From a virus: DNA of 56,302 nucleotides. The position numbers and the translations under genes are program-made. The stretch lies in the UHGV virus genome UHGV-0090450. The stretch is one strand, 5' to 3'. Shown here one piece after another: positions 3,950 to 56,302 of the stretch (position 1 is the stretch's first letter; the number at the start of each line of letters is the position of its first letter). The notes below the pieces were generated by a model. That model was not told the DNA's origin. It did not search any database and saw only the letters and a program-made list of their open reading frames with translations.

Positions 3950-4304
3950 ACAGTTTAACAACACACTACCGTCGCTCGCAACTGATTGCGCTTCCTGTAC
4001 CGGGTGGAAAAGCGAAGGTGGAATATTGCTATGCAGTGAATGTACCAGGTGACAGGGAAATTGTAACCCACAGCTTTGCAGAGTGGGCTGTGGGTGATTT
4101 CAACCGGCAGAAGGAGACAGTCCTTTGCGACAAGTTAACCGCTGGTTCAAAGATCACTACGGAGTGCCCGTCAGAGTCATTCGTTGGGAGCCGGAAACAC
4201 AACGGGTTATCTACCTCCGCGAAGGTTATGAGCATGAATGCTTCAGTCCGCTCGAACAGTTTCGTCGTAAATTCAGGGAAATAGAGGTCGGTCATGAGCA
4301 CTAA
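3946..4304 (+). pseudogene. hypothetical protein, apparently frameshifted (N-terminal part in frame of 3946, protein-like C-terminal part in -1 frame ending 4304)
   Basis: Frame of 3946 ORF becomes Ser-rich noise after about residue 60 while the overlapping frame from 4098 to 4304 reads [44 protein letters not shown] with no ATG. Confidence 0.35.
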
Positions 4305-5220
4305 ATTAACCGGCTATGTATGGGATGGTTGCGCTGCATCAGGCATGAAGTTATCCAGCGTGGCAATTATGGCCCGCCTGGCTGATTTCAGTAATGACGA
4401 AGGTGTGTGCTGGCCATCAATTGAAACCATTGCCCGTCAGATTGGCGCGGGGATGAGTACCGTCAGAACGGCTATCGCACGGCTGGAAGCAGAAGGCTGG
4501 TTAACGCGTAAGGCGCGTCGCCAGGGTAACCGCAATGCGTCGAATGTTTATCAGCTTAACGTTGCGAAGCTTCAGGCAGCGGCATTTTCTCAACTGTCAG
4601 ATTCTGACCCGTCAAAATCTGACGCATCAAAATCTGATGCGTCGAAATCTGGCAAAAAAGCGGGTTTTCACCCGTCAGAATCTGGCGGGGATCCGTCAGT
4701 AAAATCAAAACATGATCCGTCAGATAAAAAACCTTCTCGTCCGGACGCTTCGCAACCGGACACGCAGACGGCTGAACAGGATTTTTTAACTCGCCATCCT
4801 GATGCGGTTGTATTCAGCCCTAAAAAGCGCCAGTGGGGAACGCAGGATGATTTGACCTGCGCACAGTGGCTCTGGAAAAAAATCATCGCCCTGTACGAGC
4901 AGGCCGCCGAATGTGACGGCGAGGTGGTTCGTCCCAAAGAACCGAACTGGACAGCCTGGGCAAACGAAATTCGCCTGATGTGTGTGCAGGATGGTCGTAA
5001 TCATAAACAAATCTGCGAGATGTACAGCCGCGTCAGTCGCGATCCGTTCTGGTGCCGTAACGTGCTCAGCCCGTCGAAGCTGCGGGAAAAATGGGATGAG
5101 CTTTCCCTGCGCTTATCGCCGTCCGTCAGCACGTACACCGAAAAACGCGAAGACCCGTACTTCAAATCCAGTTACGACAACGTGGACTACAGCCAGATCC
5201 CGGCAGGATTCAGGGGGTGA
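4294..5220 (+). CDS. replication initiator (lambda O-like: N-terminal winged-helix, repeat-rich linker, C-terminal domain)
   Basis: N-terminal HTH (VRTAIARLEAEGWL), DPSKSDASKSDASKSG repeats encoded by DNA iterons, position after cro/cII-like genes. Confidence 0.7.
   Translation: MSTKLTGYVWDGCAASGMKLSSVAIMARLADFSNDEGVCWPSIETIARQIGAGMSTVRTAIARLEAEGWLTRKARRQGNRNASNVYQLNVAKLQAAAFSQLSDSDPSKSDASKSDASKSGKKAGFHPSESGGDPSVKSKHDPSDKKPSRPDASQPDTQTAEQDFLTRHPDAVVFSPKKRQWGTQDDLTCAQWLWKKIIALYEQAAECDGEVVRPKEPNWTAWANEIRLMCVQDGRNHKQICEMYSRVSRDPFWCRNVLSPSKLREKWDELSLRLSPSVSTYTEKREDPYFKSSYDNVDYSQIPAGFRG
4596..4745. repeat. iterons inside the O-like gene (probable phage origin)
   Basis: At least 6 copies of CCGTCA(A/G)AATCTG(A/G)-like units in direct orientation, as in lambda ori within O. 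Confidence 0.6.
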
Positions 5221-5711
5221 TCATGAGTCTGTTAAATGACGTTCAGAAATTCATTGAAGCCCATCCTGGGTGTACTTCCGGAGACATTGCGGATGCTTTT
5301 GCAGGTTACTCACGGCAGCGCGTTCTGCAGTCTGCAAGCAAGTTACGTCAGAGTGGGCGTGTGGCTCACCGTTGTGAAGGAGATACACGCAGACATTTCC
5401 CGCGCCTGACTGAGAGAGCGCAGGAGCCGGAACCACAACCAGTTCGTGAAACCAGACCTGTGCGCAATTTCTATGTCGGCACTAACGATCCCCGGGTGAT
5501 TTTGTGCCTGACCCGCCAGGCTGAAGAACTGGAGTCAAGGGGCTTATACCGTCGTGCTGCAACCGTGTGGATGGCGGCATTCCGTGAAAGCCACTCCCAG
5601 CCAGAACGAAACAATTTTCTGGCGCGTCGTGAGCAGTGCTTACAGAAAAGCAGCAAGCGCGCTGCATCGGGTGAAGAGTGGTATCTGTCAGGGAATTACG
5701 TGGGGGCGTAA
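5217..5711 (+). CDS. PerC-family transcriptional regulator-like protein
   Basis: Motif ELESRGLYRRAATVWMAAFRE matches the PerC signature; translationally coupled to neighbours. Confidence 0.55.
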   Translation: MIMSLLNDVQKFIEAHPGCTSGDIADAFAGYSRQRVLQSASKLRQSGRVAHRCEGDTRRHFPRLTERAQEPEPQPVRETRPVRNFYVGTNDPRVILCLTRQAEELESRGLYRRAATVWMAAFRESHSQPERNNFLARREQCLQKSSKRAASGEEWYLSGNYVGA

Positions 5712-6037
5712 TGACGACGTTAACTCAATGCCAGCAGCAGGTGCTGGATATGCTGATTTCTTATCAGAAAGAGCGTGGCTTTCCGCCAACCAATCAGGAG
5801 GTGGCAACCATGCTGGGATACCGTTCGGTGAATGCAGCGGTGGAGCATCTTCGCGCACTGGAGAAAAAAGGCCTCATCACGATAAAGCGTGGCGTGGCAC
5901 GGGGGATAACGCTTCATACCGCTGTGAAGGACGACGACAGCGAGGCGGTCGGGATTATCCGCGCACTGCTTGCCGGTGAGGAAAACGCCAGGCTGCGTGC
6001 AGCCCACTGGTTACATGAGAGGGGCCTGAAAGTATGA
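5711..6037 (+). CDS. LexA DNA-binding-domain-only protein (no S24 peptidase domain)
   Basis: LTQCQQQVLDMLISYQKERGFPPTNQEVATMLGYRSVNAAVEHLRALEKKGLITIKRGVARGITL aligns closely with the LexA N-terminal domain as recalled; ATG at 5711 overlaps upstream stop (TAATG); track ORF begins at 5678. Confidence 0.7.
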   Translation: MTTLTQCQQQVLDMLISYQKERGFPPTNQEVATMLGYRSVNAAVEHLRALEKKGLITIKRGVARGITLHTAVKDDDSEAVGIIRALLAGEENARLRAAHWLHERGLKV

Positions 6038-6423
6038 AGCTGATTCTGCCTTTTCCGCCCAGCGTGAACACGTACTGGCGACACCCCAACAAAGGGGCGT
6101 TTGCTGGTAAGAGCCTGATAAGCGCGGCGGGGCGCAAATTCCAGAGCGCGGCGTGTGCAGCAATAGTTGAGCAGTTACGTCGTCTGCCAAAACCAACGTC
6201 GGCACCTGCTTCAGTGGAGATCGTGTTGTTTCCACCGGATAACCGGATCCGCGATCTGGACAACTATAACAAGGCGCTGTTTGACGCCCTGACCCACGCG
6301 GGTGTGTGGGAGGACGACAGTCAGGTGAAAAGAATGCTGGTGGAGTGGGGGCCGGTTATCCCGGAAGGGAAGGTCGAGATCACTATCAGTAAGTACGAGA
6401 AAACGGCGGGTGCAGCCGCCTGA
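6034..6423 (+). CDS. rusA: RusA Holliday-junction resolvase
   Basis: Size and motifs (DLDNYNKALFDALTHAGVWEDDSQV) typical of RusA; nin-region position. Confidence 0.85.
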   Translation: MKLILPFPPSVNTYWRHPNKGAFAGKSLISAAGRKFQSAACAAIVEQLRRLPKPTSAPASVEIVLFPPDNRIRDLDNYNKALFDALTHAGVWEDDSQVKRMLVEWGPVIPEGKVEITISKYEKTAGAAA

Positions 6424-6442
6424 TTAAGAGGAGAAACGAAGT

Positions 6443-7240
6443 ATGAATAATCTGATGGTCATTGATGGTATTGAAGTTCGTCGTGATGCTTATGGGCGTT
6501 ACAGCCTGAACGATCTGCACAGGGCTGCCGGTTCTCAGGATAAGCATAAGCCTGCATTTTGGCTCCGCAATGAGCAAACCGAACGTTTAATAAGCGAGTT
6601 GCAGATTTGCAACTCGGTCAATATAGAGCCAGTTAACGTTAGTCGTGGCGGAAATAACCAGGGGACGTATGTCTGCAAAGAACTGGTGTATGCCTATGCA
6701 ATGTGGATCAGCCCGTCATTCCATCTGAAGGTGATCCGTACTTTCGATATGGTAACCAGCGCACCGGAAAAATTATCCGGGCAGGCTGCTGACAAGATGC
6801 AGGCTGGTGTGATTCTGCTGGACTTTATGCGTCGGGAGTTAAACCTGTCTAACTCATCTGTGCTTGGTGCCTGTCAGAAACTCCAGGAGGCTGTTGGCTT
6901 ACCGAATCTGGCACCGCGCTATGCCATTGATGCTCCTGCTGATGCACTCGATGGCTCAAGCCGCCCTACGCTATCATTGAGTGCACTGCTGAAGCAGTAT
7001 GGTATCCGCCTTACGGCTAATCAGGCATATCACCAGATGGTGAAGCTGGGGATCGTCGAACAGCGCGAACGATACAGCCGTACCGCGATTAACAACATCA
7101 AAAAATTCTGGTCGCTAACAGCGAAAGGCTGCATGTTCGGCAAGAACATCACCAGTCCCGCAAATCCGCGCGAGACGCAGCCGCACTTTTTCGAATCCCG
7201 ATTCCCTGAGCTATTAAAGCTGCTCGCTACCGTTCATTGA
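6443..7240 (+). CDS. KilA-N domain protein
   Basis: N-terminal KilA-N-like segment (IDGIEVRRDAYGRYSLNDLHRAAG...KPAFWLRNEQT). Confidence 0.65.
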   Translation: MNNLMVIDGIEVRRDAYGRYSLNDLHRAAGSQDKHKPAFWLRNEQTERLISELQICNSVNIEPVNVSRGGNNQGTYVCKELVYAYAMWISPSFHLKVIRTFDMVTSAPEKLSGQAADKMQAGVILLDFMRRELNLSNSSVLGACQKLQEAVGLPNLAPRYAIDAPADALDGSSRPTLSLSALLKQYGIRLTANQAYHQMVKLGIVEQRERYSRTAINNIKKFWSLTAKGCMFGKNITSPANPRETQPHFFESRFPELLKLLATVH

Positions 7241-7241
7241 G

Positions 7242-8237
7242 GTGACCGTGAGAGCACTACTGACCCCTGAAATTGCCCCGCGTATGGGGATCGTATTGTT
7301 CAGACCAGGTTCAGAGCTGATGCCCTTGTTTATGCAGGGGCGTGTCCTGCTGGAGCCTGAGCCGGAACGTTATTCATCTTTCGCCAGTGGTGCCGTTCCG
7401 GCGGCATCACAACCGCTGGCGGATGATCCTGCCGTTCGGGCCGTGTTCCGCAATGAGGCAGTGATTCGTCGTGCTGGTGGAGTGGAATGTCTTGAAAGCT
7501 GGTTACTTCGTGAAAAAGGCTGCCAGTGGCCTCATTCCGACTGGCACAGCGAGAACATGACCACAATGCGACACGCGCCGGGCGCAATCCGTCTGTGCTG
7601 GCACTGCGATAACCAGCTGCGCGATCAGTTCACGGAACGGCTGGAATCAATGGCAACGGATAACTGTGCCCGCTGGGTGTTGTCTGTTGTGCGTCGGGAT
7701 CTCGGTTTTGATGATAGTCACGCTGTGACAATGCCGGAACTGTGCTGGTGGCTGATTCGTAATGACCTGGCGGGTGCCTTACCGGAAAGTGCAGCCCGTA
7801 AGGCACTGAGATTACCGAAGCCTGTTGTGCCGTCTGTCACCCGGGAAAGTGACCTTGTGCCTTCGGTTCCTGCCACCAGCATCATCCAGGATAAGGCAAA
7901 AAAGGTGCTGGCGCTGAAAGTGGATCCGGAGTCGCCGGAGTCTTTTATGTTACGCCCAAAACGTCGCCGCTGGGTTAATGAAAAGTACACGCGCTGGGTT
8001 AAGACACAGCCGTGTGCATGTTGTGGTAAGCCTGCTGATGATCCCCACCACCTGATAGGCCACGGTCAGGGGGGAATGGGTACAAAAGCGCATGACCTCT
8101 TTGTGTTGCCTTTGTGCAGAAAGCATCACGACGAGCTGCATGCGGATACCGTGGCATTTGAAGAGAAGTATGGCTCCCAGCTGGAGCTGATATTTCGTTT
8201 TATCGATCGTGCGCTGGCAATTGGCGTGCTGGCCTGA
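7242..8237 (+). CDS. DUF968-like nin-region protein with C-terminal Cys/His cluster
   Basis: C-terminal CACCGKPADDPHHLIGHG...PLCRKHHDELH. Confidence 0.55.
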   Translation: MTVRALLTPEIAPRMGIVLFRPGSELMPLFMQGRVLLEPEPERYSSFASGAVPAASQPLADDPAVRAVFRNEAVIRRAGGVECLESWLLREKGCQWPHSDWHSENMTTMRHAPGAIRLCWHCDNQLRDQFTERLESMATDNCARWVLSVVRRDLGFDDSHAVTMPELCWWLIRNDLAGALPESAARKALRLPKPVVPSVTRESDLVPSVPATSIIQDKAKKVLALKVDPESPESFMLRPKRRRWVNEKYTRWVKTQPCACCGKPADDPHHLIGHGQGGMGTKAHDLFVLPLCRKHHDELHADTVAFEEKYGSQLELIFRFIDRALAIGVLA

Positions 8238-8239
8238 TT

Positions 8240-8608
8240 TTGCGGAGAAAGTTGATGCGTGATATGTATGAAGTTTTGGACCGCTGGGGGGCATGGGCTG
8301 CTGCAGAAAACAGTGGTGTGGACTGGCAACCGGTAGCTGCTGGCTTCAAGCGGCTTTTACCTCATGGCAGAAAGTCCCGGATTCAGTGCGATGATGATGA
8401 GGGCATCATAATAGACGGTTGTGTCGCTAGGTTGCGTAAATACAAGCCGGCAGAGTATGAGCTGATAATTGCTCACTTTGTTGTTGGCATTTCGCTCCGT
8501 ACAATTGCAAAGAAGCGGAAATGTTCAGACGGAACAGTACGAAAAGATATGCAAACAGCTATGGGGTTTATTGATGGCTGTTTGTCATTTTTTTATTTAA
8601 TACAATGA
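8240..8608 (+). CDS. late-gene antiterminator Q (small Q family)
   Basis: VLDRWGAWAA N-terminus and overall pattern of small Q antiterminators; located after nin-like genes and upstream of lysis module. Confidence 0.7.
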   Translation: MRRKLMRDMYEVLDRWGAWAAAENSGVDWQPVAAGFKRLLPHGRKSRIQCDDDEGIIIDGCVARLRKYKPAEYELIIAHFVVGISLRTIAKKRKCSDGTVRKDMQTAMGFIDGCLSFFYLIQ

Positions 8609-8687
8609 GTTAAGTGCTATGTAAAATCATTCTACTTTCCCAACTTTTATGTGTATATAATACCAGGGTAAAGTAACGGAGAATCTT

Positions 8688-9728
8688 GTGAACATTCAAG
8701 CAGTAGACATTTTTTGTGGCGCAGGGGGCTTAACTTTTGGGCTAAAAAAAGCCGGGATTGAAGTTTCTCATGGCATTGATATTGATGAGTCCTGCCGTTT
8801 CGCTATTGAGAGCAATAATCCCTTAACGAAGTTCATTAACCAGTCAGTTACTGAACTGCAATCCAGCGATGTGTCTGCTATGTTCAAGGAAGGAAATATT
8901 AGATTACTTGCAGGCTGTGCCCCTTGCCAACCGTTTTCCAAGTATCGTAATCCAAATAGCAGAAAAGATGATACAAAGTGGCGTCTTTTATCTGAGTTTC
9001 AGAGGATTGTAAGTGATGTCATGCCAGAGCTTGTGACTATGGAAAATGTTCCTCAACTTAGAAATCATAAGGTTTTTGAAGAGTTTGTTAGTGTATTAAA
9101 GACTCTTGGGTATCATCTGTGGTACGACGTTGTAAAATGTTCCGAGTATGGCTTGCCTCAAAATAGACGTAGATTAATTCTAATTGGGTCCATATTGGGG
9201 CCAATCAGCCTTGATCAAAAAAAAGTAAGCCGTAAAGTTACAGTAAAGGATGCTATTGGTCAGTTGCCAAAAATAGGTGCAGGGGAGAAACTCGAAAGTG
9301 ATCCATTGCATCGTTCGCCTAAATTAAGGGATATTAACCTTAAACGAATCTTGCACTCTTTACCAGGTGGTACGTGGGATGATTGGCCTGAAGAAATTAG
9401 AGCGGATTGCCATAAAAAGCATTCAGGTGCTACCTATAAAAGTGTTTATGGACGGATGGTTTGGGACGATACTAGTCCTACAATAACTACCCAATGTTAT
9501 GGATATGGTAATGGGCGATTCGGACATCCTGAGCAAAATAGAGCAATAACTTTGCGTGAAGCTGCTATTTTACAATCTTTTCCTATGGATTATAAATTTA
9601 TTGGAAAAAATACGCCTTTTTCATTCCAAAAGTTAGGAACGATGATTGGTAATGCTGTTCCCCCTATAATTGGCCAAGTAATAGGGAGAACATTTGTTAG
9701 GCATGTTGAGGGGATAAATATCCGTTAG
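8688..9728 (+). CDS. DNA (cytosine-5) methyltransferase
   Basis: Motif I FCGAGG, motif IV GCAPCQPFS, ENV, QNRRR, C-terminal GNAV; GTG start; AT-rich relative to phage backbone. Confidence 0.9.
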   Translation: MNIQAVDIFCGAGGLTFGLKKAGIEVSHGIDIDESCRFAIESNNPLTKFINQSVTELQSSDVSAMFKEGNIRLLAGCAPCQPFSKYRNPNSRKDDTKWRLLSEFQRIVSDVMPELVTMENVPQLRNHKVFEEFVSVLKTLGYHLWYDVVKCSEYGLPQNRRRLILIGSILGPISLDQKKVSRKVTVKDAIGQLPKIGAGEKLESDPLHRSPKLRDINLKRILHSLPGGTWDDWPEEIRADCHKKHSGATYKSVYGRMVWDDTSPTITTQCYGYGNGRFGHPEQNRAITLREAAILQSFPMDYKFIGKNTPFSFQKLGTMIGNAVPPIIGQVIGRTFVRHVEGINIR

Positions 9729-10386
9729 AGATAATATAATCTTCAGTTGAGTTTATTAATAAACGAAGATATAGATCAACTCTCTCTGCTCTAGACTTAA
9801 CTTCTTCTAAGGGGTCAATTTGCCCCTTTTTAGAGAAGCTAGTACTTCCATGCGCGAGTTCGTTTCTGATATCCTTAAGCAAGTCTAAGTCAATACCATT
9901 TCTACATTCAGGTGAGTTTGCGATAGTTATTCCGTAAGCCTGCGTTATTTTGTGTAATACAGGCTTGCAAACATTACCATTGAATTCTTTACGAATATTC
10001 AATGAGGCTGAAATTATTCTTTTGGAAATGTCAGTGCCTATCTTTTTATAAAGGGATTGCCCTGTTTCATTATCTGAAACAATTCTATGTAATATATTTA
10101 CTTGAAGCTTCTCCCTGAGTGATGCGTAATTCACATCATTATCTTGTAAATGATCATAAATTGACTCGATGCAACCTCTGGCAGTATTTTCAACTTGATT
10201 ATATAGCATCATATGAACGGATGATTTTAAAATATTTACCCTTAGGATATTAGATTCTATTTCATCTTGATGCGCTTGCGGATCTAACTGCTGAGTATGA
10301 ATCTCTATAGATGATGCAAGAGAAAGCAGTTCCATAATGTCTCTTGCTCTTTCTTCATATTCATCTCGTAAATCAATTAGACTCAT
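9697..10386 (-). CDS. HEPN-motif protein (R-x4-H: RNELAHG), putative nuclease partner of DUF262 protein
   Basis: Rx4-6H motif near C-terminus; start 2 nt after DUF262 stop; 3' end overlaps the methyltransferase 3' end by 32 bp. Confidence 0.55.
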   Translation of the reverse strand: MSLIDLRDEYEERARDIMELLSLASSIEIHTQQLDPQAHQDEIESNILRVNILKSSVHMMLYNQVENTARGCIESIYDHLQDNDVNYASLREKLQVNILHRIVSDNETGQSLYKKIGTDISKRIISASLNIRKEFNGNVCKPVLHKITQAYGITIANSPECRNGIDLDLLKDIRNELAHGSTSFSKKGQIDPLEEVKSRAERVDLYLRLLINSTEDYIISNGYLSPQHA

Positions 10387-10388
10387 TT

Positions 10389-11549
10389 TTAAATCCCTAA
10401 CAACTTATTTTTAACGTAAAATATTCTGTTTTTTAGCTGGCTGGTATTGTTTGCACTATCAGCAGTAACAAGTGTTTCAAATTCCTCTTCAAATAGCCAT
10501 TCACCTACAGGTACGGCTGGACTCTGGAGTTGTGGGTTAGTTTTTAATGCAAGTGCAGTTCCCACGGCAATGGCTTCGTATCTGGCTCGTGGGGTGGTTT
10601 TACTTGTTGCGGTCTTTTTAAAGCCAATAGGGAAATGGGCAGCAACAAAAGCAAGCATCATTTCAAAATCATGTTTAAAATTATCAACATCTTGTTGAGT
10701 AGTCACAGCTGCTGCTTGTTCATTTAAATAATTATCAATAAAGGGACGGACAAATCCCTTATAGTTTTCTAAATCATTTAAATATGCAAAAAATCTCAAA
10801 ACTAACTCACGATGATCGCCATTCGACCGTTTCCGGTCTGATAATGGAGCTAGTTGGGAAAAAAGTGAGTTTGTTGAGCATGGGGTCACAACATCTTTAT
10901 AGAACATTGAGGTAGCAGCATCTGAGCCATGCCTCACTTCCATCGCTTCTAATCTTTTAACACCTGAGTTGATCCTTTCAAATAAATCTCTTCTATGTTG
11001 TTCCTCAACATCACCTTTCAACTCAATAAATCTTAGTGAAGCTCTTAAAAATCTTCTTTGGCGGCTAGCTAAAAGATCTGAAAATTTGAAACCTTCTAAA
11101 CTTTTAAGCTCTTTCAAATCCTTTAACTCAAATTGATCGTTCCAAAAATAATAAATAGAGCGTATCCGTTGTGAACCATCAATGATTTCTACCCTACCAT
11201 CTAATTCAGGGTCTTCATTAAATACATCAGCAATGTAAAGGTAAGGTATTGGAAAGTCTAATAGAATACTTTCTATAAAGCGAGAGGCTGTTTTTGTATC
11301 CCACTTGTAATCACGTTGATAATCTGGAATAAAAAGCTCGTTTTTGTCATTTTCAATATTATCACCATACTTTTGAATAATGACTTCAACGGTCCACTCA
11401 CGTACATTGTATCCAATGTTTCTCTGAGCGAGTCTGATTTCATTGTCAGCGGAAGCGGTTAAAGCTGCAATTTCAGCCTTTTTTCTGTTCTTAGCGTGTT
11501 CATCTTGTATCTGAGCAAGCTCTTCTTTGAGTTCTTTGAGTGTAGTCAT
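10389..11549 (-). CDS. DUF262 (ParB-like/GmrS-like) domain protein
   Basis: IPDYQRDYKW and DGSQR motifs diagnostic of DUF262; no DUF1524/HNH domain in the same polypeptide. Confidence 0.8.
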   Translation of the reverse strand: MTTLKELKEELAQIQDEHAKNRKKAEIAALTASADNEIRLAQRNIGYNVREWTVEVIIQKYGDNIENDKNELFIPDYQRDYKWDTKTASRFIESILLDFPIPYLYIADVFNEDPELDGRVEIIDGSQRIRSIYYFWNDQFELKDLKELKSLEGFKFSDLLASRQRRFLRASLRFIELKGDVEEQHRRDLFERINSGVKRLEAMEVRHGSDAATSMFYKDVVTPCSTNSLFSQLAPLSDRKRSNGDHRELVLRFFAYLNDLENYKGFVRPFIDNYLNEQAAAVTTQQDVDNFKHDFEMMLAFVAAHFPIGFKKTATSKTTPRARYEAIAVGTALALKTNPQLQSPAVPVGEWLFEEEFETLVTADSANNTSQLKNRIFYVKNKLLGI

Positions 11550-11565
11550 GTTTTCGTTCCTTTAA

Positions 11566-11594
11566 TTGAAAGTTGATTGTAAGAAAACTATAAC
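11566..11594 (+). promoter_or_regulatory. sigma70-like promoter (TTGAAA-17-TATAAC), candidate late promoter PR'
   Basis: Hexamers and 17-bp spacer seen directly; followed about 60 nt later by a terminator hairpin, upstream of the holin gene. Confidence 0.3.
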
Positions 11595-11649
11595 GCGTAC
11601 GCAAAAACTATCGTAATCTGTTAAGAGTGGTTACTTCGCCACACAGCTT

Positions 11650-11680
11650 AAACCCGCCATCGAGCGGGTTTTGTCGTTTC
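11650..11680 (+). terminator. rho-independent terminator (AAACCCGC-CATCGA-GCGGGTTT + T-rich), tR'-like
   Basis: Perfect 8-bp GC-rich stem plus TTTTGTCGTTT. Confidence 0.5.
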
Positions 11681-11823
11681 TGGGGCTGGGGATTCGTTGG
11701 TCTAGGCCTATTCCGCAGTTATCCATTGTTTCGGCTTCTTTGACGTTTCCGCTTCTGATTTGCGGTACATGATGTTCCCTCAATTTGCACCTGCTGTTTC
11801 AGCGAGGTGAGAGATAACTACAA

Positions 11824-12150
11824 ATGCCTCATAACCCAAATACCTGGCTGGAGTTGGTCCAGAGCTGGTGGCGTGGAGACACACCACTGGGCGCAGTGAT
11901 TATGTCGATTGTTATGGCTGGATTGCGCATTGCCTATTTTGGCGGTGGTGGTGGGTGGAAGCGAAAAACGCTCGAGATTTTGCTCTGTGGTGCTCTGACG
12001 CTGACTTTTGCATCCGCTCTTGAGTATGTCGGATGGCCTAAATCTCTTTCTGTTGCCATTGGTGGCGGTGTTGGGCTGATTGGTGTCGATGCAATTCGTG
12101 GGGCTGCAATGAGAGTGATCGGTAACAAGTTTGGTGGCTCTAAGGAGTAA
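11824..12150 (+). CDS. S: holin (lambda S-like class I)
   Basis: Hydrophobic segments, charged C-terminus, directly upstream of endolysin. Confidence 0.8.
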   Translation: MPHNPNTWLELVQSWWRGDTPLGAVIMSIVMAGLRIAYFGGGGGWKRKTLEILLCGALTLTFASALEYVGWPKSLSVAIGGGVGLIGVDAIRGAAMRVIGNKFGGSKE

Positions 12151-12994: not shown

Positions 12995-13157
12995 TCTGAC
13001 TGCTGAAACACCTGTACCGAACATACCAAATCCGCTGACGTATGGAGCGAGTCTGGATTTGAATATTAATCTTCTTTCTGCTGTTAAACAGTGCAACTTA
13101 GATAAACTAAGTATCAGAAAACTAGAGGAAAAAAGAAGAAATAGTTTAACTAATTAA
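12891..13157 (+). CDS. Rz1: o-spanin lipoprotein (Rz1-like), overlapping Rz in another frame
   Basis: Lipobox LLSLLTGC, Pro-rich mature part; track ORF starts upstream at 12825. Confidence 0.7.
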   Translation: MMTVLHVLCLLSLLTGCESSRTVYVNAPVTPLPTSLTAETPVPNIPNPLTYGASLDLNINLLSAVKQCNLDKLSIRKLEEKRRNSLTN

Positions 13158-13234
13158 AAAGACTGTAATATTTTACATATCTATATTTTGCCATATATGC
13201 ATAATGGTTAATCATTAAACAAGAGAGGCTTTAT

Positions 13235-13483
13235 ATGGCATATGCAAAGTTAGTTTTTACTATTCTTGGTCGTGATGACAATAAATACGAAGTTTACGCA
13301 CAGGGGGAACATGCAGAGCCGGAACGTGTGATTCACTATAAATTGGTTGAAATAGTTGGTGCAGATGGCAGTAATACAACTCCGATTTATGAATGGAAAG
13401 TTATAAATCCAAATATGACATTTCCGGAATCAGTTGAATATCGAATTGCATCGAATTTGATTTGGTATCTTAGTAGACTTTAA
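13235..13483 (+). CDS. hypothetical small protein in AT-rich moron
   Basis: RBS AGAGAGG, AT-rich promoter-like upstream region, terminator hairpin downstream. Confidence 0.5.
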   Translation: MAYAKLVFTILGRDDNKYEVYAQGEHAEPERVIHYKLVEIVGADGSNTTPIYEWKVINPNMTFPESVEYRIASNLIWYLSRL

Positions 13484-13508
13484 ATGTTTAGCTATCAAAG
13501 AAATATAT

Positions 13509-33005: not shown

Positions 33006-34073
33006 TTAATGAAATTTATCTCGGATGAATTGTTGCGATGGCTTTTCAATGAATATATATGACATATAGCTAATTGCCATTAATGTAAGCATGAATAAAA
33101 TGAATACCTTGGGGCTGTAAAAAAGATCGCGTCCATAGCCAATCTTGTCAGCTAAATAAACAACAATGATTTGCAAAGGAAAATGTAAAAGATAAGATGA
33201 ATAACTGATATCACCCAACCATTCAATTTTCTTCCCAAAATCGTTTCGTATTGCGCTAATTGATACAAGGAAAAAGATTATGGAGGTAAATCCGAATAAG
33301 ATAATTGAGAATATATCTGCTACTTGCAGGGTAAAGATAACTCCCCATGAGATCAATAGAAAAACACAAGCAAAAATAAAAAATAATTTTGCGCTAATAT
33401 TTTTTATGACCGCAATCGTAATTTTATAGGTCAGACCACCAATAAAGAAAGAGAATGCGCCGATCATTATGGGATTGTTAATTTTGAAAAAGTAGTACGA
33501 CAATGCAACTATTAAAATTGATATGAATGTTGTTTTTGATGTGAACTTGCATAATATAAAAAATATCATGTACATAAGTACTTCAATCGACACGGACCAT
33601 GTCGGGGCGTTGAAGGACCAACCTCGCTCAAATCCCCATGATTGAATCATCAATAAATTCAGAATGGCATGGTAAATGTCATTCATAGGATAAACAAAAA
33701 AATAATTATGACTTTTAAAGAAAATAATTTGTAATATTGCCACGACAGCAAATGTAAATATATAAAGTGGATATAATCTACTGACACGGTTAACTATAAA
33801 AGTTTTTGCTGAGGTTTTATTGCTGTGTATATTGTCAGCGTATAGATAAAAAAATATGAATCCAGAAATCATAAAAAACAATTCGACAGCATATAAACCG
33901 TAATGATAAAAAACGGAAAAAAATTCATAAAAAGGTTGGCGGTTTATGATTATGTCAGATGCAGCATTCTTTTTCATAAAAAAATGTTGCCAATGCCATA
34001 ACACAACGGAAAGTGCGGCAAATCCTCTCAGAACATCCAGGGTATATATTCTCTTCCCAAAAAAATTCGTCAC
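33006..34073 (-). CDS. acyltransferase family 3 integral membrane protein (O-antigen acetyltransferase-like)
   Basis: About 10 predicted TM helices; N-terminus LDVLRGFAALSVVLWHWQHFF; very AT-rich. Confidence 0.85.
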   Translation of the reverse strand: MTNFFGKRIYTLDVLRGFAALSVVLWHWQHFFMKKNAASDIIINRQPFYEFFSVFYHYGLYAVELFFMISGFIFFYLYADNIHSNKTSAKTFIVNRVSRLYPLYIFTFAVVAILQIIFFKSHNYFFVYPMNDIYHAILNLLMIQSWGFERGWSFNAPTWSVSIEVLMYMIFFILCKFTSKTTFISILIVALSYYFFKINNPIMIGAFSFFIGGLTYKITIAVIKNISAKLFFIFACVFLLISWGVIFTLQVADIFSIILFGFTSIIFFLVSISAIRNDFGKKIEWLGDISYSSYLLHFPLQIIVVYLADKIGYGRDLFYSPKVFILFMLTLMAISYMSYIFIEKPSQQFIRDKFH

Positions 34074-34623: not shown

Positions 34624-35493
<870 letters not shown>

Positions 35494-36032
35494 CTAACCC
35501 TTTGAATTTACATAGCGCAAAAAGATACCTTTCCTCATAATGTGAGCTAATTTTATGTTTCGTTTGATGATCGGATCGGTCTCGAAACCCGTAGCCACGT
35601 CGTATGCAAGAACGTGCTACGACTGGCTGGTGAACTTCCGATAGTGCGTGTATTGAATGATTTCCAACTGTTATCGATTTTGCGTATTTTTTGCATGAGA
35701 GGATTTTTACCTCCTCCCACCGATCCTCCATGGCTTTACGCCAGTGTCTCTGGTCTGCTATGTGCCAGAAGCGGAAGTTCCCACTATTATGCTCTGCATC
35801 GATACCGGGAAGGTACTTAAGTCCCCCGGTATTCACTGATATTATCCTCCAGCTACCGCAATGCCGCCCAATCTGGTATGGCTTAGCTAGCCAAGTAACT
35901 GCTGGCAGAAAGGCCTCTTCAAGCATACCATCCGGATTTACCGATGAGATTTCCCATCCAGCACGGAAATGATACTTTCTACTGACCCCAGATTTTTACT
36001 AAGACAATAAAGATACTGGATTCAATGAGGGG

Positions 36033-38597
36033 TTATTTCATAAGAGTGCGCCTTGTTTTGATCTGATCACGCCATTCTTTTAACGTGCTTATATCCGCTC
36101 GCAGCTCCTTATACTCTGGTATAGAAGCTGGCATTTCCGTCGACTGGCTGTGCTCATAACAGCTGTATTTAGTCATGAGGCTTTCAATCAATTTACAGTC
36201 TTCTGCAGTTATATCCTGTACATACGGAAGCCTTCCGTCAGTCTGGATTCCTCTTCTATGACGTATAACTACCCCGTTAAATAAATCCTCCTCGACAGAG
36301 CGCTCAATGAGTTTACGAAAATCACTGCAAACGCCCTGAGCTAGCCCACGGAAAGCTATTGCGCCATGTTCTTGTCCAGATTTGTAGGCTGAATCCAGCC
36401 TAGTCAGGAGAATGTTATTCGCTGATTTGGTATTCGCGTTCCAGACCTCCTGATCGGCAGGATGACCGGCAGCTCCATCAAATGATTCAATACATATCGA
36501 TTTATGGTGCTGCTTTTTCCATGGGTCTCCCTCTTTTCTTGCCAAATCTTCAATTACCCCGTAAAGGGAAAGTCTGTGCGTTAAAATAATCACCTGACGC
36601 GATTTAGCGAGTTCAACGAGGCGTTTAGCAACTTGCCACTCAAATTCGTGGTCCAGAGATGAAATAGGGTCATCAAAAATGAAGGGAGCAGATCCCGGCC
36701 GATCAGTGACATCGGCTAAAAATGCAGCCAGTGAGATAATCCTACGTTCTCCTTCACTCAGAACATTGTGCAACTTGTCCCGTTGCGCTCCTTTTAGCTG
36801 TAGCTGATGCAAAACTTTCGCATTTTCTGTCCTTATTTTCACAAGCTCAACCTGCAAGCCAGGAGCACCAAGAACTTTCAGCTCACGGTTGAATCTGGCG
36901 GCATAGGCTTCAGTGACAACTTTCTGAGTAATATCAGCAGATTTAGTTGATAATGCACGGGAAGCGGCAAGTGATATCCATTCATCAAATTCACTTCTTT
37001 TTTTTAAGCGTTCAACTTCGGCTCTGATAGCCTCGGCTTGACCAGATAACCACCGTCGAGCTTCGGCTTCGTTTTTATTCTGCAAAGCTTTGGCCCTGTC
37101 AAATCCTGCTGCATCTCTCTGAAACTGGTCGGCTTCTCCCTGAAGCCGGTCGCGGTAAGTACGTAAATTCGTGATAGCTTCGGTCAAATCAGCCAAAGGA
37201 ACTGCTGTCTGGGTAGCTTCATGCTCGGTGAGCGCCTGACGACTGAGGGATGCGGAACTCCATATTCCCGTTAGGTATTTATTCCATTCTTCCTGAATCG
37301 CAGCGCTTGCACAAAGGGTAGCAATTTCGGCCATTGAGGGAGGAATAGTTATCGAGCCGATTGCCTGAGCATACAGACACTCAGCTGTGGCAGCATCGCT
37401 CTCAAGACGTGATTGCACGAAAGCCTCAAGATTGTTCAGACGCTGCTGAGCTTCTGCGGATAGAGCCTGATTGCATAAAACACAACAGGCCTCATCTGTT
37501 GCCGGAAAAGCCTTGTCTGGATAGGGCGTCCTTGAATAGTCGCGAGCAGCTTCCCACATGGCACGCCATACAGGTGAGCCAATGCCCTCCAGTGAGTCAT
37601 CTTTTATTCGTTCACTATCAAGCGCAATTCTGCGCTTGCTGATGCTATCAGCACGTAACGCCCGAAGACAGTCGATATTTGACTGGCTAAAAGTCTTTGC
37701 CGTCTGCTCAAGTTGAGTGATGATCTGATTAACAGATGTTTGAACCGCAAGCTTGTTGCGGGCGTTCTCAGCCGGATCTTTAACGTTCAGACGTTCATTC
37801 AAGGCACTAAGCGCTTGCTCATCCGCCTCAGACCAGTTTGTCATCACTGCGATATTTTCGGTAGTTGCTGTACTTAGTGCACTATAGGTAGTGGCAATAT
37901 GACAACGCTGATAAACAGCAGGTAGTTCGGGAAGTTTGCTGACTAGCTGAGACTGTTCATCCCTTAGCTTATCGCGTACCAGTTTCAGGTACTGGGCCAG
38001 TTTTTCAAAAAGCCCCACCACACTCGGTATATAGGTAGCGGCACTCTCTTGGGTGAGATAATGCAGAGATTCATCCGTATCGAAGATATCAATGCCTTTC
38101 AGGGCATCGATCGGAGGGCTGTCAGCTGACCAGTCCGCTTCAGCATTGCTTTCATTCGCTTTCCATTTAATGTGGCAACTTCGCTCAGGTGGTAAGGGAT
38201 TAAAGACATTAGAGTTAAGCTGAGCTGCTCTAGGTTTTCCGGACATACGTTTGAGCACACGCGTATAGCTGGATTTACCGGACCCGTTATGGCCGTAAAT
38301 AACAGTCAGATTCCCTGAACCGAAATCGAGCGGTAAACGTGGAGCAAGGTTCTCAATACCCTTTACAGCTTCGATCCGACTTAACCTGAGTGTTCCAGAT
38401 CCCTGCTCTGCAGATGCTAGGCCTAGGAAAGTATGGTGTGTCGTTTTTGTTCGTCCATGGGGGGTCTTGAGTAAAGCAATAACCTGCTGAAGGTCATTAT
38501 CTGTCAGGTCATCCTGTTGAATGAGTCTTTCCGCTAGTTCCTGAAACCAGTCCTGCTGCTTTAACAGCCAGGCTATGATATCGGCCTTTACATCCAT
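36033..38597 (-). CDS. RloC-like ABC/SMC-type ATPase with coiled-coil insertion and CxxC zinc hook (AAA_13-like)
   Basis: Walker A VIYGHNGSGKSS, signature LSEGERRIISLAAFLA, Walker B FIFDDPISSLD, H-loop ILTHR, CVLC within the roughly 500-aa insertion; RBS AGGAGGG. Confidence 0.7.
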   Translation of the reverse strand: MDVKADIIAWLLKQQDWFQELAERLIQQDDLTDNDLQQVIALLKTPHGRTKTTHHTFLGLASAEQGSGTLRLSRIEAVKGIENLAPRLPLDFGSGNLTVIYGHNGSGKSSYTRVLKRMSGKPRAAQLNSNVFNPLPPERSCHIKWKANESNAEADWSADSPPIDALKGIDIFDTDESLHYLTQESAATYIPSVVGLFEKLAQYLKLVRDKLRDEQSQLVSKLPELPAVYQRCHIATTYSALSTATTENIAVMTNWSEADEQALSALNERLNVKDPAENARNKLAVQTSVNQIITQLEQTAKTFSQSNIDCLRALRADSISKRRIALDSERIKDDSLEGIGSPVWRAMWEAARDYSRTPYPDKAFPATDEACCVLCNQALSAEAQQRLNNLEAFVQSRLESDAATAECLYAQAIGSITIPPSMAEIATLCASAAIQEEWNKYLTGIWSSASLSRQALTEHEATQTAVPLADLTEAITNLRTYRDRLQGEADQFQRDAAGFDRAKALQNKNEAEARRWLSGQAEAIRAEVERLKKRSEFDEWISLAASRALSTKSADITQKVVTEAYAARFNRELKVLGAPGLQVELVKIRTENAKVLHQLQLKGAQRDKLHNVLSEGERRIISLAAFLADVTDRPGSAPFIFDDPISSLDHEFEWQVAKRLVELAKSRQVIILTHRLSLYGVIEDLARKEGDPWKKQHHKSICIESFDGAAGHPADQEVWNANTKSANNILLTRLDSAYKSGQEHGAIAFRGLAQGVCSDFRKLIERSVEEDLFNGVVIRHRRGIQTDGRLPYVQDITAEDCKLIESLMTKYSCYEHSQSTEMPASIPEYKELRADISTLKEWRDQIKTRRTLMK

Positions 38598-40369: not shown

Positions 40370-41584
40370 GTGAAACTCAATGCCCGTCAAATAGACACTG
40401 CCAAGCCAAAAGAGAAGGCTTACAAGCTGGCTGATGGTGGTGGTCTGTATCTCTTGGTAAAACCTAGTGGAGGAAAATATTGGCGCTTCAAGTATCGTGT
40501 AGCTGGTAAAGAGAAGCTGTTAGCACTAGGTGTGTATCCTGAAGTTACCTTGGCTGATGCTCGTGCAAAACGTGAAGAAGCTAAAAGGGGTATCGCTGGG
40601 GGTATCGATCCGATGGAAGCGAAACGAGAGGAAAAGATTGCCCGGGAAACGCAGTTAAACAACACCTTCAAAGATATTGCCCTTGAGTGGCACAGCAGCA
40701 AATTAAAAAAATGGTCTGCTGGTTATGCTTCAGACATCCTCGAAGCCTTCAACAAAGATGTGTTCCCTTACATTGGCAAAAAACCAATCGCCGAAATCAA
40801 ACCACTTGAACTGCTGAATGTGCTGCGGCGCATCGAGGGGCGCGGTGCTACCGAAAAAGCCAAAAAAGTGAGGCAGCGATGTGGGGAAGTTTTCCGCTAT
40901 GCAATTGTCACTGGACGTGCTGAGTATAACCCTGCACCGGATCTCACCAGCGCGATGCAAGGTCATGAATCTAATCATTATCCTTTCCTCACAGCCAAAG
41001 AATTACCTGATTTTTTCAAGGCATTGTCCAGTTACTCAGGAAGTGCATTGGTTGTTATGGCGGCTCGTTTACTGATTATCACCGGTTTGCGGACTGGCGA
41101 ACTGCGCGGTGCATTATGGGATGAAATCGATCTCAACAAGGCTATCTGGGAGATACCTGCTTCACGGATGAAAATGCGTCGCCCTCATGTAGTGCCTTTG
41201 TCTGAGCAGGCTCTTTCGCTTATTGGGCAGATTAAAGAACTAACTGGCAATTATCCGCTTATGTTTCCCGGCCGTAATGATCCAAGGAAAACAATGAGCG
41301 AGGCTAGCATAAACCAAGTATTTAAACGCATCGGCTATAACGGAAAGGTTACTGGTCATGGCTTCCGGCACACTATGAGCACCATTTTGCATGAGCAGGG
41401 CTATAACACCGCGTGGATAGAGACACAGCTTGCGCACGTCGATAAAAACTCAATTCGTGGCACATACAACCATGCGCAATATCTGGATGGGCGGCGGGAA
41501 ATGCTTCAGTGGTACGCTGATTATATGGATTCGCTCGAGCATGGCGGAAATGTGGTGCATGGTGAGTTCGGAAAATGCGGGTGA
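40370..41584 (+). CDS. int: tyrosine integrase (P4 type, N-terminal arm-binding domain)
   Basis: N-terminus KLADGGGLYLLVKPSGGKYWRFKYR, C-terminal catalytic region (HGFRHT, LAH...RGTYNH); GTG start after GGAGG; adjacent to tRNA fragment. Confidence 0.9.
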   Translation: MKLNARQIDTAKPKEKAYKLADGGGLYLLVKPSGGKYWRFKYRVAGKEKLLALGVYPEVTLADARAKREEAKRGIAGGIDPMEAKREEKIARETQLNNTFKDIALEWHSSKLKKWSAGYASDILEAFNKDVFPYIGKKPIAEIKPLELLNVLRRIEGRGATEKAKKVRQRCGEVFRYAIVTGRAEYNPAPDLTSAMQGHESNHYPFLTAKELPDFFKALSSYSGSALVVMAARLLIITGLRTGELRGALWDEIDLNKAIWEIPASRMKMRRPHVVPLSEQALSLIGQIKELTGNYPLMFPGRNDPRKTMSEASINQVFKRIGYNGKVTGHGFRHTMSTILHEQGYNTAWIETQLAHVDKNSIRGTYNHAQYLDGRREMLQWYADYMDSLEHGGNVVHGEFGKCG

Positions 41585-51975: not shown

Positions 51976-52023
51976 ATACCCACAACGCATTCCCTTTCCG
52001 CATGAAATTATTTTTTATCGTAT

Positions 52024-52569
52024 ATGCATGAGGTGAGCTACATGTTGATGAGTAAAGCCGAATACGCCAAATACAAAGGCGTAAGCCGCCAGACAGTTTA
52101 CGACTGGCTCGAGAAAGGCGAAGTGGTCATGTCCGGTAAAAAAATTGATGTGGAAGCGACAGAGCAGCGGAACAGCCCACCAGCACAGGGGAAAGACACC
52201 ATTTCTGAAATGTGGCCAGAAAGAACGCTGGAAATGACATGGGGCGAGTTCTGGAAAGCAGTTAAGGCCAGAGACGGTAAAATTCCTGCGCCAGTAACGG
52301 ACGAGGGCATACAGCAGCGTGTGCTGTATGCAGCCGGGGAATTAGGCTGGGAAGTGCACTTTCTTGATGATGGTGCTATCTGCCTTGAGGATGATGAAGG
52401 GCAGCATTACTTTGAAAAATACAATTTGCGAGGTAATGCCAGGCTGGCAATTCGTATGCTGCGTTGCGAACTCTGCTATGTTGCAGGTGATTATCCCGAT
52501 GAACCGGAATCATGGAGTGAAGCCGGGTTAAACGCCCTGGCTGAGTGGGAAAAATCAGACCATCAATGA
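52024..52569 (+). CDS. HTH-domain protein (181 aa)
   Basis: N-terminal SKAEYAKYKGVSRQTVYDWLEKG helix-turn-helix-like segment. Confidence 0.5.
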   Translation: MHEVSYMLMSKAEYAKYKGVSRQTVYDWLEKGEVVMSGKKIDVEATEQRNSPPAQGKDTISEMWPERTLEMTWGEFWKAVKARDGKIPAPVTDEGIQQRVLYAAGELGWEVHFLDDGAICLEDDEGQHYFEKYNLRGNARLAIRMLRCELCYVAGDYPDEPESWSEAGLNALAEWEKSDHQ

Positions 52570-52860
52570 CATCAAAAAGTGTCAAGTTGAGCAGCTTGCC
52601 AGCTTGCCACTTTACACTCTGAACGCGAAAAAGTGTCAACCTCGCTGTAAGCCCCGCAATTACTGGGTTTGTGCCAGATTTACCACGTCAAAAAGCCGAA
52701 AAAACCGCGAAAAATGTCAAGTTGCCATGCTTAGAAATGCTAAGGTTTTTCGCGAAAAAGTGTCAAGTGTGTCAACCTGCGATATTAAGATTTATTAAGG
52801 TCTTAAGCCGGAAAGTGTCAACCAGCCCCCTAAGATTTCCTAAGGTGTGATTGGACGTGC
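52570..52860. repeat. repeat cluster: about 5 copies of GAAAAAGTGTCAA(G/C) plus 2 copies of TAAGATTTxxTAAGGT
   Basis: Seen directly downstream of HTH gene. Confidence 0.6.
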
Positions 52861-52942
52861 TGTAACCTTCTTGTCGCAATGTGGATGAATGACTATAGTG
52901 CTGGTAGCTTTGACAGCAGAATCAGATTACTGAAGGAAATGT

Positions 52943-53527
52943 GTGATGAGTTTTTTTAGTCTTTATGGGAAAGAACTATTTTCTTTTTTTATAACGATTT
53001 TAACATGGATACTGAATAACAGATTTAAAAGCAAGGCAAAGTTATCCTATGGTTATCAGCATGGATTTACTTTTCTTCTCAATGAACCCTTACGGAATGC
53101 CAATGGTGAGGTAATATCTAATTCACAGTTGGTGTATACACGATCTATTATTCTTGTTAATGAAGGGCGAGAAAGTGCTACTAATATCTCATTGGTTTTT
53201 AACTATAAGCCAATGCATATTAATTTTTGGCCTGTCCACCATTTTGAAGAAAATATTGAACAGGATGGTCGCTATATTATCAAGTTTGAAAGCCTTGCAC
53301 CTGGTGAGTCTATTCAATGTGAAATATTATCAATAAATAGAGAAGTTCCAAGTATTCTATCGATAAGATCTAAAGAGTGTGTGGCTGAGCCAGTGAATAT
53401 CGTGATGCAAAAATCGATTAGTAATATTGCCCTACGTTGCTATCAATTATTAATACTTCTTGGAACTGGCACATTAACATATTTAATTATCGTTATTCTG
53501 CAATGGTTAGTCACTAAAACGGGATAA
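52943..53527 (+). CDS. membrane protein (N- and C-terminal TM segments), AT-rich cargo
   Basis: Hydrophobic termini; no known domain. Confidence 0.5.
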   Translation: MMSFFSLYGKELFSFFITILTWILNNRFKSKAKLSYGYQHGFTFLLNEPLRNANGEVISNSQLVYTRSIILVNEGRESATNISLVFNYKPMHINFWPVHHFEENIEQDGRYIIKFESLAPGESIQCEILSINREVPSILSIRSKECVAEPVNIVMQKSISNIALRCYQLLILLGTGTLTYLIIVILQWLVTKTG

Positions 53528-53549
53528 TCCATTGTATTGAACTTATTAA

Positions 53550-53759
53550 TTGGATATGAGTGCTGATAGGAAACCTATGACCATCACCGAAGCCGATATG
53601 CTGGAGATGATCCGCAGCATTGCCGGAATCAAACAACCAGCAAGCAAAATTAACAGGTGTTCAGCGCCTGTTTCCGTTGTGCTGCAACAGGAACGCCACC
53701 AGCGGCGGGAAAACGAAAAGGCGTACCAATGGACGAAGCCAAACAAGTTACGGCGTTAA
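53550..53759 (+). CDS. hypothetical small protein
   Basis: ORF only. Confidence 0.3.
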   Translation: MDMSADRKPMTITEADMLEMIRSIAGIKQPASKINRCSAPVSVVLQQERHQRRENEKAYQWTKPNKLRR

Positions 53760-53793
53760 TTAGGGATGCGGGCTGGGATAGCCCGCATTTTGC

Positions 53794-56252: not shown

Positions 56253-56256
56253 TTAA

Positions 56257-56284
56257 GCAAGGGTGTTATTATCAACACCCTTGC
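56257..56284 (+). terminator. hairpin GCAAGGGTGTT-ATTATC-AACACCCTTGC after the 532-aa gene
   Basis: Perfect 11-bp stem; no strong T-run. Confidence 0.4.
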
Positions 56285-56302
56285 TCATAGTCTTACAATA
56301 TT

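Follow-up and report, generated by a model that had tools for sequence, protein, structure and literature searches.

A gene cluster combining a HEPN protein of the MAE_28990 family, a ParB (DUF262) protein and a DNA methylase was predicted as an operon by Anantharaman et al. in 2013 (PMC3710099, Table 1), in a single table line with no experiments, census or phage context. The DUF262-HEPN pair PD-T4-2 from E. coli ECOR65 protects against T4 in its native host as well as in K-12 (Vassallo et al. 2022; PMC9519451), and further described DUF262 proteins include NsnA of the Menshen system (NsnABC; Millman 2022; PMC12065111), the modification-dependent enzymes GmrSD and BrxU, which have no cognate methyltransferase (PMC10952713), and SspE, which works with a cognate DNA-modification module. 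Here, we analysed positions 8609–11823 of the virus genome UHGV-0090450 (56,302 nucleotides, referred to as the window), where a C5 cytosine DNA methyltransferase (Dcm) converges on a DUF262-HEPN operon. All three features of the 2013 prediction are present (a HEPN protein with an Rx4H motif, a DUF262 protein in the same operon and a linked DNA methylase), and the locus is best filed as an instance of that operon, now in a prophage slot and related to PD-T4-2. What is new with respect to the prediction is that the methylase always belongs to a single C5 clade whose target-recognition region is conserved, that this clade can pair with a GHKL restriction enzyme instead, and that the module fills prophage slots. 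As judged from sequence comparison, the three genes are shown to be a conserved, co-inherited unit with intact catalytic motifs. Our favoured reading, which we give a probability of about 0.5, is that they form one mobile defence module resembling a restriction-modification (R-M) system and carried as prophage cargo, in which Dcm would mark self, the NTP-hydrolysing DUF262 protein would sense unmarked DNA and HEPN would cleave RNA to abort or block infection.

Compared with the characterised systems, the operon shares with PD-T4-2 its E. coli origin and its two-gene design of a DUF262 protein without DUF1524 and an adjacent HEPN protein (RiboL-PSP/MAE_28990-like). PD-T4-2, however, is 1.54 kb long, and the 1.8 kb cloned for it included no methyltransferase, whereas the pair described here spans 1.85 kb and is strictly linked to Dcm. 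We did not assign the locus to PD-T4-2, as PADLOC found no PD-T4-2_B match at E ≤ 0.01 for this HEPN protein or those of four relatives, and the DUF262 protein matched NsnA (E = 4.8e-45, residues 14–315) better than PD-T4-2_A (E = 5.8e-27). NsnA was indeed its best PADLOC match, and the two share the same architecture, a ParB-DUF262 domain followed by a helical ParBDB-like C-terminal domain. In contrast to Menshen, the gene downstream of DUF262 encodes a 229-aa HEPN protein and not the ABC/OLD-type ATPase NsnB; neither an ATPase of the NsnB kind nor the inPIN effector NsnC was found among the island proteins with Pfam and PADLOC, so that with HEPN and Dcm in their place membership of Menshen was rejected as well. 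The NTPase domain with its DGQQR-type motif (DGSQR here) is common to GmrSD, BrxU and SspE; these carry a DUF1524 His-Me nuclease, whereas here the effector is a separate HEPN protein, and the absence of DUF1524 excludes a GmrSD-type enzyme. EcoprrI-PrrC likewise couples a DNA-methylation-based self/non-self system functionally to a HEPN RNase. It does so through an ATPase-HEPN fusion placed on a complete Type I enzyme, while our locus has a DUF262 sensor and no evident separate DNase.

Among 5,426 complete E. coli genomes, 107 contained the whole island and none a partial copy, the remaining matches being weak similarities to unrelated dcm genes. Two variants occur in E. coli (∼99.5% and ∼87% DNA identity), the second on another lambdoid backbone, where the layout of the three genes is unchanged. 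To look further afield, we gathered 19 DUF262-HEPN(MAE_28990) lineages by way of the DUF262 protein, the distant relatives coming from tblastn against phages and plasmids; a word-indexed search with HEPN yielded only 31 close relatives. An intact Dcm of the same clade was immediately adjacent in 17 of the 19 lineages: two from E. coli, a prophage and a plasmid from Klebsiella, Yersinia, Pseudomonas, Vibrio, Haemophilus, Actinobacillus, Pseudoalteromonas (in a Tn7-like element), a copy lying inside a Type I R-M operon, with hsdS and hsdR on either side, Moraxella (phage Mcat24), Polaromonas, Phaeobacter, Rhodococcus, Roseomonas and Rhizobium. These cover Gamma-, Beta- and Alphaproteobacteria and Actinomycetota, with plasmid-borne triads in Klebsiella, Polaromonas, Phaeobacter, Roseomonas, Rhizobium and the actinomycete Rhodococcus. 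Sampling from the Dcm side (∼55% identity) gave triads in three out of five cases, namely a Halomonadaceae chromosome, a P2-like prophage hotspot in Proteus and the cyanobacterium Phormidium, bringing the overall range to five bacterial classes and three phyla. Since the contexts range from the lambdoid Q slot, which the Klebsiella and Yersinia prophage triads also occupy, through a P2 hotspot, a Tn7-like element and plasmids to the interior of a Type I R-M operon, all three genes move together as a unit. In most convergent triads the 3′ ends of Dcm and HEPN overlap or abut, and in Phaeobacter, Rhodococcus, Rhizobium (with vsr next) and Phormidium all three genes run in one direction and their stop and start codons overlap.

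An earlier note on this DNA, made from the sequence of the window, had suggested that the three genes may form one self/non-self unit, unless homologous phages showed that they never travel together. With triads in this many classes and phyla the proposal of one unit is supported, and the note's other option, an independent anti-restriction methylase beside an exclusion nuclease, is disfavoured by the conserved linkage. Calling the combination unusual was an overstatement, given its frequency in complete E. coli genomes and a Klebsiella orthologue in 761 blocks of the contig collection; the triad is neither rare nor conceptually unprecedented. The note had also proposed a modification-sensing nuclease, which probably has the polarity wrong, as the Dcm clade also partners a Type II-class enzyme (see below), and the DUF262 protein has no nuclease fold.

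Two of the 19 lineages lacked an intact Dcm. One comprises E. coli and Salmonella IncF plasmids, discussed below. The other is the P2-like phage P2_4B2 (Peduovirus P24B2), where Dcm is split by a frameshift in a G8 run (∼2361–2368 of locus L019, minus strand) at the conserved PGGTW motif. This could be a sequencing error or a phase-variable switch beside an intact DUF262-HEPN pair, and with the frameshift lying in a homopolymer we used the split gene as evidence in neither direction.

The adjacent methyltransferase always came from one orthologous clade and was 47–61% identical to the Dcm of the window, in lineages where identity fell to 33–45% for DUF262 and 23–31% for HEPN; across triads, mean pairwise identities were 0.55, 0.45 and 0.27, respectively. 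Motifs I (FCGAGG), IV (PCQ), VI (ENV), VIII (QxRxR) and X (GNAVP) were invariant in 10 orthologues. Identity in the target-recognition region between motifs VIII and IX was 0.59–0.60, compared to 0.51–0.53 in the catalytic core, and reached 0.68 over residues 205–285. Conservation of this region thus equals or exceeds that of the core, which argues for one shared target sequence across the clade, which comprises 7,999 proteins at E ≤ 1e-40. The best solved relatives (DNMT1, the prophage Dcm 3g7u, M.HaeIII and M.HhaI) were matched through generic motifs only, from which the target motif could not be inferred. DUF262 and HEPN, in turn, co-vary tightly (Spearman 0.78). We read Dcm as a putative slowly evolving, portable modification component and DUF262-HEPN as a likely co-evolving sensor-effector couple in the restriction slot.

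The two Dcm-side samples that were not triads came from a Pasteurella P2-like prophage and a metagenomic contig. In both, Dcm converges on one protein of ∼655 aa, again with an overlap of the 3′ ends; this protein combines an N-terminal GHKL ATPase with an SduA_C-like restriction-endonuclease-fold domain and matches the PADLOC Type II restriction-enzyme model REase_II PDLC03419 over its full length (E∼1e-92). This partner is of the paraMORC3 type, which Iyer et al. 2008 placed in R-M systems that also contain cytosine methylases and Vsr (PMC2292703). In a neighbour-joining tree the two Dcms nest among those of triads, and they share 67–69% identity with the triad enzymes of Haemophilus, Actinobacillus and Moraxella. 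The Dcm clade, the convergent overlapping layout and the kind of prophage hotspot are thus the same, while a single GHKL ATPase/nuclease stands in place of a DUF262 sensor and a HEPN RNase. As the same clade and layout occur with a restriction enzyme, the DUF262-HEPN slot can be regarded as a restriction slot, and by analogy the GHKL pairing points to R-M logic for the triad. The PDLC03419 pairing supports an analogy with classical Type II R-M and not membership of that class.

In orthologue alignments, the catalytic motifs were invariant in all three triad proteins. They include the DGSQR motif of the GmrSD-family NTPase domain in DUF262 and the conserved Rx4-6H motif of the MAE_28990 family in HEPN. 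The C-terminal half of DUF262 is helical, and the AlphaFold2 (AF2) model of the protein had a BrxU/SspE-like fold, these being the closest specific structural matches; Pfam found no DUF1524 in the island, and the model contained no nuclease fold. HEPN has a HEPN-toxin-like fold, the sole nuclease fold detected in the system, and no DNase was recognisable among the three island proteins. Among solved structures, DUF262 had no sequence relative, and two matches of HEPN (E = 0.14 and 0.98) were dismissed as chance-level. HEPN variants of 192 aa (P0131, P0132 and P0136) had been considered as natural knock-outs, resembling the decay known from R-M systems in which the effector is lost and the methylase kept. 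They were discarded as sequencing artefacts because in every 4 kb their assemblies lack single bases in 5–8 homopolymers, which lie in all three genes (Dcm, HEPN and DUF262) and also between genes. As a separate observation, Krischvirus/RB49-like T-even phages contain a stretch 30% identical to DUF262 residues 7–191 (116547–117059 in Escherichia phage Phi1, NC_009821.1). In Phi1 it is spread over two small annotated hypothetical genes, and from its sequence it might be a DUF262 fragment carried by the phage, for instance a decoy or a homing-related gene.

If the three genes work as one module, the methyltransferase, transcribed from a promoter of its own and probably by read-through from Q as well, would place 5-methylcytosine (m5C) at one fixed motif on lysogen and phage DNA. 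The DUF262 protein, a ParB-like NTPase with a helical DNA-binding domain, would scan DNA and be triggered by incoming DNA without the mark, whereupon it would switch on the translationally coupled HEPN protein. RNA cleavage by HEPN would then arrest the infected cell or block phage gene expression, shielding the lysogen population from superinfecting phages, with the module being expressed in the lysogen from the slot between Q and the late promoter/terminator block. Convergent transcription over the 32-bp overlap of Dcm and HEPN may delay expression of the effector during prophage establishment; since co-directional triads exist, it cannot be essential. That methylase-linked DUF262 proteins target non-modified DNA has been suggested before (PMC12065111). 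We also consider, more tentatively, that the triad provides methylation-gated, RNA-targeting immunity, with R-M-like discrimination and abortive-infection RNA cleavage instead of DNA cutting, and that the Dcm clade serves as a portable self-label for either DUF262-HEPN or a GHKL nuclease.

Several observations weigh against this mechanism. The characterised DUF262 proteins GmrSD, BrxU and SspE respond to the presence of a modification and not to its absence (PMC10952713), and we infer the polarity of sensing proposed here, as we do the RNase activity of HEPN, the promoters and the late-regulatory role of the block at 11591–11680. Covariation between Dcm and DUF262 is weak (Spearman 0.36). The E. 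coli and Salmonella IncF plasmids carry an intact DUF262-HEPN pair (DGSQR, RNKIAH) followed by IS21/IS66 sequence with no Dcm remnant, which argues against strict dependence on Dcm, and PD-T4-2 worked when cloned without a methyltransferase; lack of a linked methylase thus does not in itself make a DUF262-HEPN pair lethal. The literature searched contained no experimental work on the triad and named MAE_28990 in one paper.

The best of the alternatives, though in our view an unlikely one, is a methylation-licensed defence of the SspBCD-SspE kind, in which m5C on host DNA would position or activate DUF262 against unmarked invader DNA or RNA, the methyltransferase being needed for defence and not for guarding the host from its own effector. 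SspE, a DUF262 protein that our model matched structurally, is indeed stimulated in its NTPase and nicking activities by host phosphorothioate marks (PMC10952713), and licensing would account for viable methyltransferase-less pairs alongside the strict linkage in the triad family. The same Dcm clade and layout with a classical-type restriction enzyme, however, most simply indicates protective methylation. An improbable second alternative takes the DUF262 protein itself as the DNA-cleaving subunit of a Dcm-based R-M system and HEPN as a latent suicide RNase similar to PrrC, held in check by the R-M complex and freed when a phage anti-restriction protein disables it. This model has been proposed for R-M-linked HEPN domains, with ParB treated as a DNase (PMC3710099), and the DUF262 domain has a weak match to the PADLOC Type II restriction endonuclease model PDLC03418 (E = 7e-4 here, down to 2e-12 in relatives). 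Yet characterised DUF262 domains act as NTPases and sensors and leave cleavage to DUF1524, which is absent here, the AF2 model has no nuclease fold, and tight DUF262-HEPN co-evolution with translational coupling suits a sensor-effector couple at least equally well. Finally, an orphan or anti-restriction methyltransferase that is simply the neighbour of a PD-T4-2-like, Type IV-like abortive-infection pair sensing hypermodified DNA (glucosylated hydroxymethylcytosine of T4) would fit the T4 defence of PD-T4-2, which needs no methyltransferase, the sensing of modified cytosines by the DUF262 proteins GmrSD and BrxU, the intact IncF pair and the frequent proximity of Menshen systems to unrelated methylases, but appears about equally improbable given the same Dcm clade in nearly all lineages and in three phyla, its place inside the same operon in four lineages, the all-or-nothing island in E. 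coli, a gene-for-gene synteny at 33–45% protein identity that co-location in defence islands alone would not yield, and triad proteins that lack a PD-T4-2_B match and lie nearer to NsnA than to PD-T4-2_A.

Defence against phages has been validated for DUF262-HEPN systems such as PD-T4-2, and a dedicated, highly conserved Dcm offers a simple genetic handle on how they distinguish self from non-self. Were methylation-gated sensing to prove correct, the triad would be a hybrid between R-M and abortive infection, whose DUF262 sensor reads the absence of a DNA mark and relays it to an RNase, and one methyltransferase clade would serve as an exchangeable self-label for different effector modules. 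About 2% of complete E. coli genomes, ST131-type strains among them, contain the island, and triads also occur in Yersinia, Moraxella and Proteus prophages; because it is common, the module may influence the host range of phage therapy and contribute 5mC to host methylomes.

As for the genomic setting, Pfam matches and open reading frames (ORFs) show three ORFs filling the gap between the Q antiterminator and the lambda-type holin (Table 1), with the DUF262-HEPN operon occupying 11549–9697 on the reverse strand and the DUF262 stop codon 2 nt from the HEPN start codon. The GC content of the interval is 0.377, compared to 0.531 for 4000–8608 and 0.550 for the structural region; equally AT-rich 3215-bp windows make up 1.6% of those in the 56-kb window, all at the island or at 52–56 kb. 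ORFs and GC content thus confirm what the earlier note had described, an AT-rich island between Q and the lysis genes with Dcm converging on DUF262-HEPN and overlapping it by 32 bp. By cross-phage comparison, the foreign DNA proper extends from ∼8630 to ∼11575, and ∼11590–11823 is conserved phage backbone consisting of a regulatory block and the holin leader. A 99.4% identical prophage is annotated in E. coli RX24, where RefSeq labels Q likewise; Q also shows weak similarity to the Q21 structure 6p18 (E = 0.0023), and PF06530 is the Q21/Q933W family (preprint 10.1101/651190).

Table 1. Features of the island, its flanks and other parts of the window
Feature	Positions	Strand	Basis
Q antiterminator gene (Q21/Q933W family); left flank, not cargo	8240–8608	+	PF06530, E = 5.4e-46
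Island left end: promoter-like TATAAT (8656–8661) and GGAG ribosome binding site (8679–8682) before the Dcm GTG start	8631–8687	+	
C5 cytosine DNA methyltransferase (Dcm-type), 346 aa	8688–9728	+	PF00145, E = 2.7e-54; TIGR00675
Convergent 3′-3′ coding overlap of Dcm and HEPN, 32 bp	9697–9728	.	ORF coordinates
HEPN protein, MAE_28990 family, 229 aa; proposed RNase effector	9697–10386	-	PF18737 HEPN_MAE_28990, E = 3.6e-17
DUF262 (ParB/Srx-like NTPase) protein, 386 aa; proposed DNA sensor	10389–11549	-	PF03235 GmrSD_N, E = 5.9e-26
Candidate leftward promoter of the DUF262-HEPN operon	11604–11576	-	-35 TTGCGT (11604..11599), 17-nt spacer, -10 TACAAT (11581..11576)
Conserved non-coding block with intrinsic terminator (stem 11650–11671, then T-run)	11591–11680	+	Cross-phage conservation
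Lambda-family holin, first gene of the lysis cassette; right flank, not cargo	11824–12150	+	PF05106, E = 5.7e-25
82-aa ORF in the AT-rich pocket at 13000–13500	13235–13483	+	No Pfam match
Acyltransferase	33006–34073	-	Acyl_transf_3
GIY-YIG protein (second defence cluster)	34624–35448	-	PD-T4-3, full length, E = 3.8e-140
157-aa ORF (second defence cluster)	35453–35926	-	No Pfam/PADLOC match
854-aa AAA_13/SMC-like ATPase (second defence cluster)	36033–38597	-	PADLOC candidate PDC-S06, E = 0, 1059 bits
P4-type tyrosine integrase	40370–41584	+	Arm-DNA-bind_3, Phage_int_M
AT-rich stretch (GC ∼0.34–0.43)	52000–56302		ORFs of 181, 194 and 532 aa with no significant Pfam/PADLOC match beyond weak HTH_17

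Related phages keep the flanks and hold other cargo at the slot; in every case the cargo follows Q directly and is encoded on the reverse strand. In SfII this is a two-gene cassette matching the PADLOC candidate PDC-M53 (L003 1871–3485), with the Q stop codon 3 bp from the reverse-strand cassette, in the Stx2a phage WGPS2 an unrelated, uncharacterised pair of genes for 343 and 179 aa (L004 3419–4982), and in phage 434 and the K-12 cryptic prophage DLP12 the porin gene nmpC. Judged by this exchange of contents, the slot, which runs from Q to the conserved block, acts as a hotspot for defence and accessory genes. The comparison with related prophages that the earlier note had called for thus returned the same flanks with different cargo, and its view of the Q-to-S interval as a cargo site stands as far as an accessory slot is concerned; the island, however, probably lies upstream of the late regulatory block. 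Adjoining the triad in the same slot, we observed HicAB in Klebsiella (L011 5007–5638) and a Mom-family gene in Yersinia (L014 4873–5604). In the early region of two otherwise similar Klebsiella triad prophages, a BsuBI/PstI-type R-M system (L011 11742–13158) and an RVT_1 reverse transcriptase (L012 11583–13070) occupy the same position, which suggests a second defence hotspot.

The block at 11591–11680 hardly varies among E. coli, Shigella, Klebsiella and Yersinia phages, although the cassette upstream of it is of four different kinds, and was found in 211 phage records including phage 434, as well as in DLP12 of K-12, 110 bp upstream of essD; it had no family match in Rfam. The canonical order of a Q cassette is Q, PR′, sigma-dependent pause element (SDPE), terminator and late genes (preprint 10.1101/651190). 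Because SfII leaves no room for a promoter between Q and the cassette, we infer that this block combines the Q-dependent late promoter with the pause region and tR′. With this block downstream, the island probably sits outside the late operon, and its genes would be expressed during lysogeny and not among the late genes. Reading the methyltransferase on the late strand as late-operon cargo is therefore not supported: the terminator block lies downstream of it, Q and the cassette are separated by only 3 bp in SfII, and Dcm has TATAAT and GGAG elements of its own. A late-operon moron of the stx kind, moreover, would lie downstream of PR′-tR′, and two of the three genes run antisense to late transcription.

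A candidate late -10 element, TAATCT at 11614–11619, corresponds to a TAnnnT hexamer that directly precedes GTTAAGAG in all seven phages compared. For the candidate leftward promoter, the -35 element falls within the invariant block, and -10-like hexamers occur in the same place in six phages with different cassettes, so that it could serve whichever cassette fills the slot. Both candidates were derived solely from cross-phage conservation. At the other end of the island, the stretch upstream of Dcm is kept in the second E. coli variant, Klebsiella and Yersinia, while the sequence further left differs; as the TATAAT and GGAG elements travel with the island in these copies, Dcm probably has its own promoter. 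A consensus promoter scan gave 14 sites, compared to 11.0 ± 3.3 in shuffled sequence, and called neither the leftward nor the late candidate. Together, these results delimit, for lambdoid phages of the Q21 family, an expression slot into which cassettes can be plugged and which lies between Q and the late promoter.

Within the invariant 11591–11612, a perfect 8-bp palindrome (GCGTACGC, 11596–11603) is flanked by -35-like hexamers facing both ways. Its counterpart in DLP12 (L042 3695–3715) is the palindrome ACGTACGT within TTTACGTACGTAAA. The palindrome is unlike the direct-repeat Q-binding element (QBE) described for Q21, and from its position it could be the shared core of divergent promoters or an operator.

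Elsewhere in the window, the last 4 kb are the sole other stretch as AT-rich as the island. A smaller AT-rich pocket (GC ∼0.35) lies between the spanin genes and the HNH endonuclease/terminase, around which the RX24 prophage annotates a reverse-strand hypothetical gene. A second defence cluster consists of three reverse-strand genes, two of them with strong matches to PD-T4-3 and PDC-S06 on either side of a 157-aa ORF. By analogy with Shigella phages, the nearby acyltransferase is possibly an O-antigen-modifying conversion gene, and the integrase suggests a prophage end and/or a second integrative element in the 32–41 kb region.

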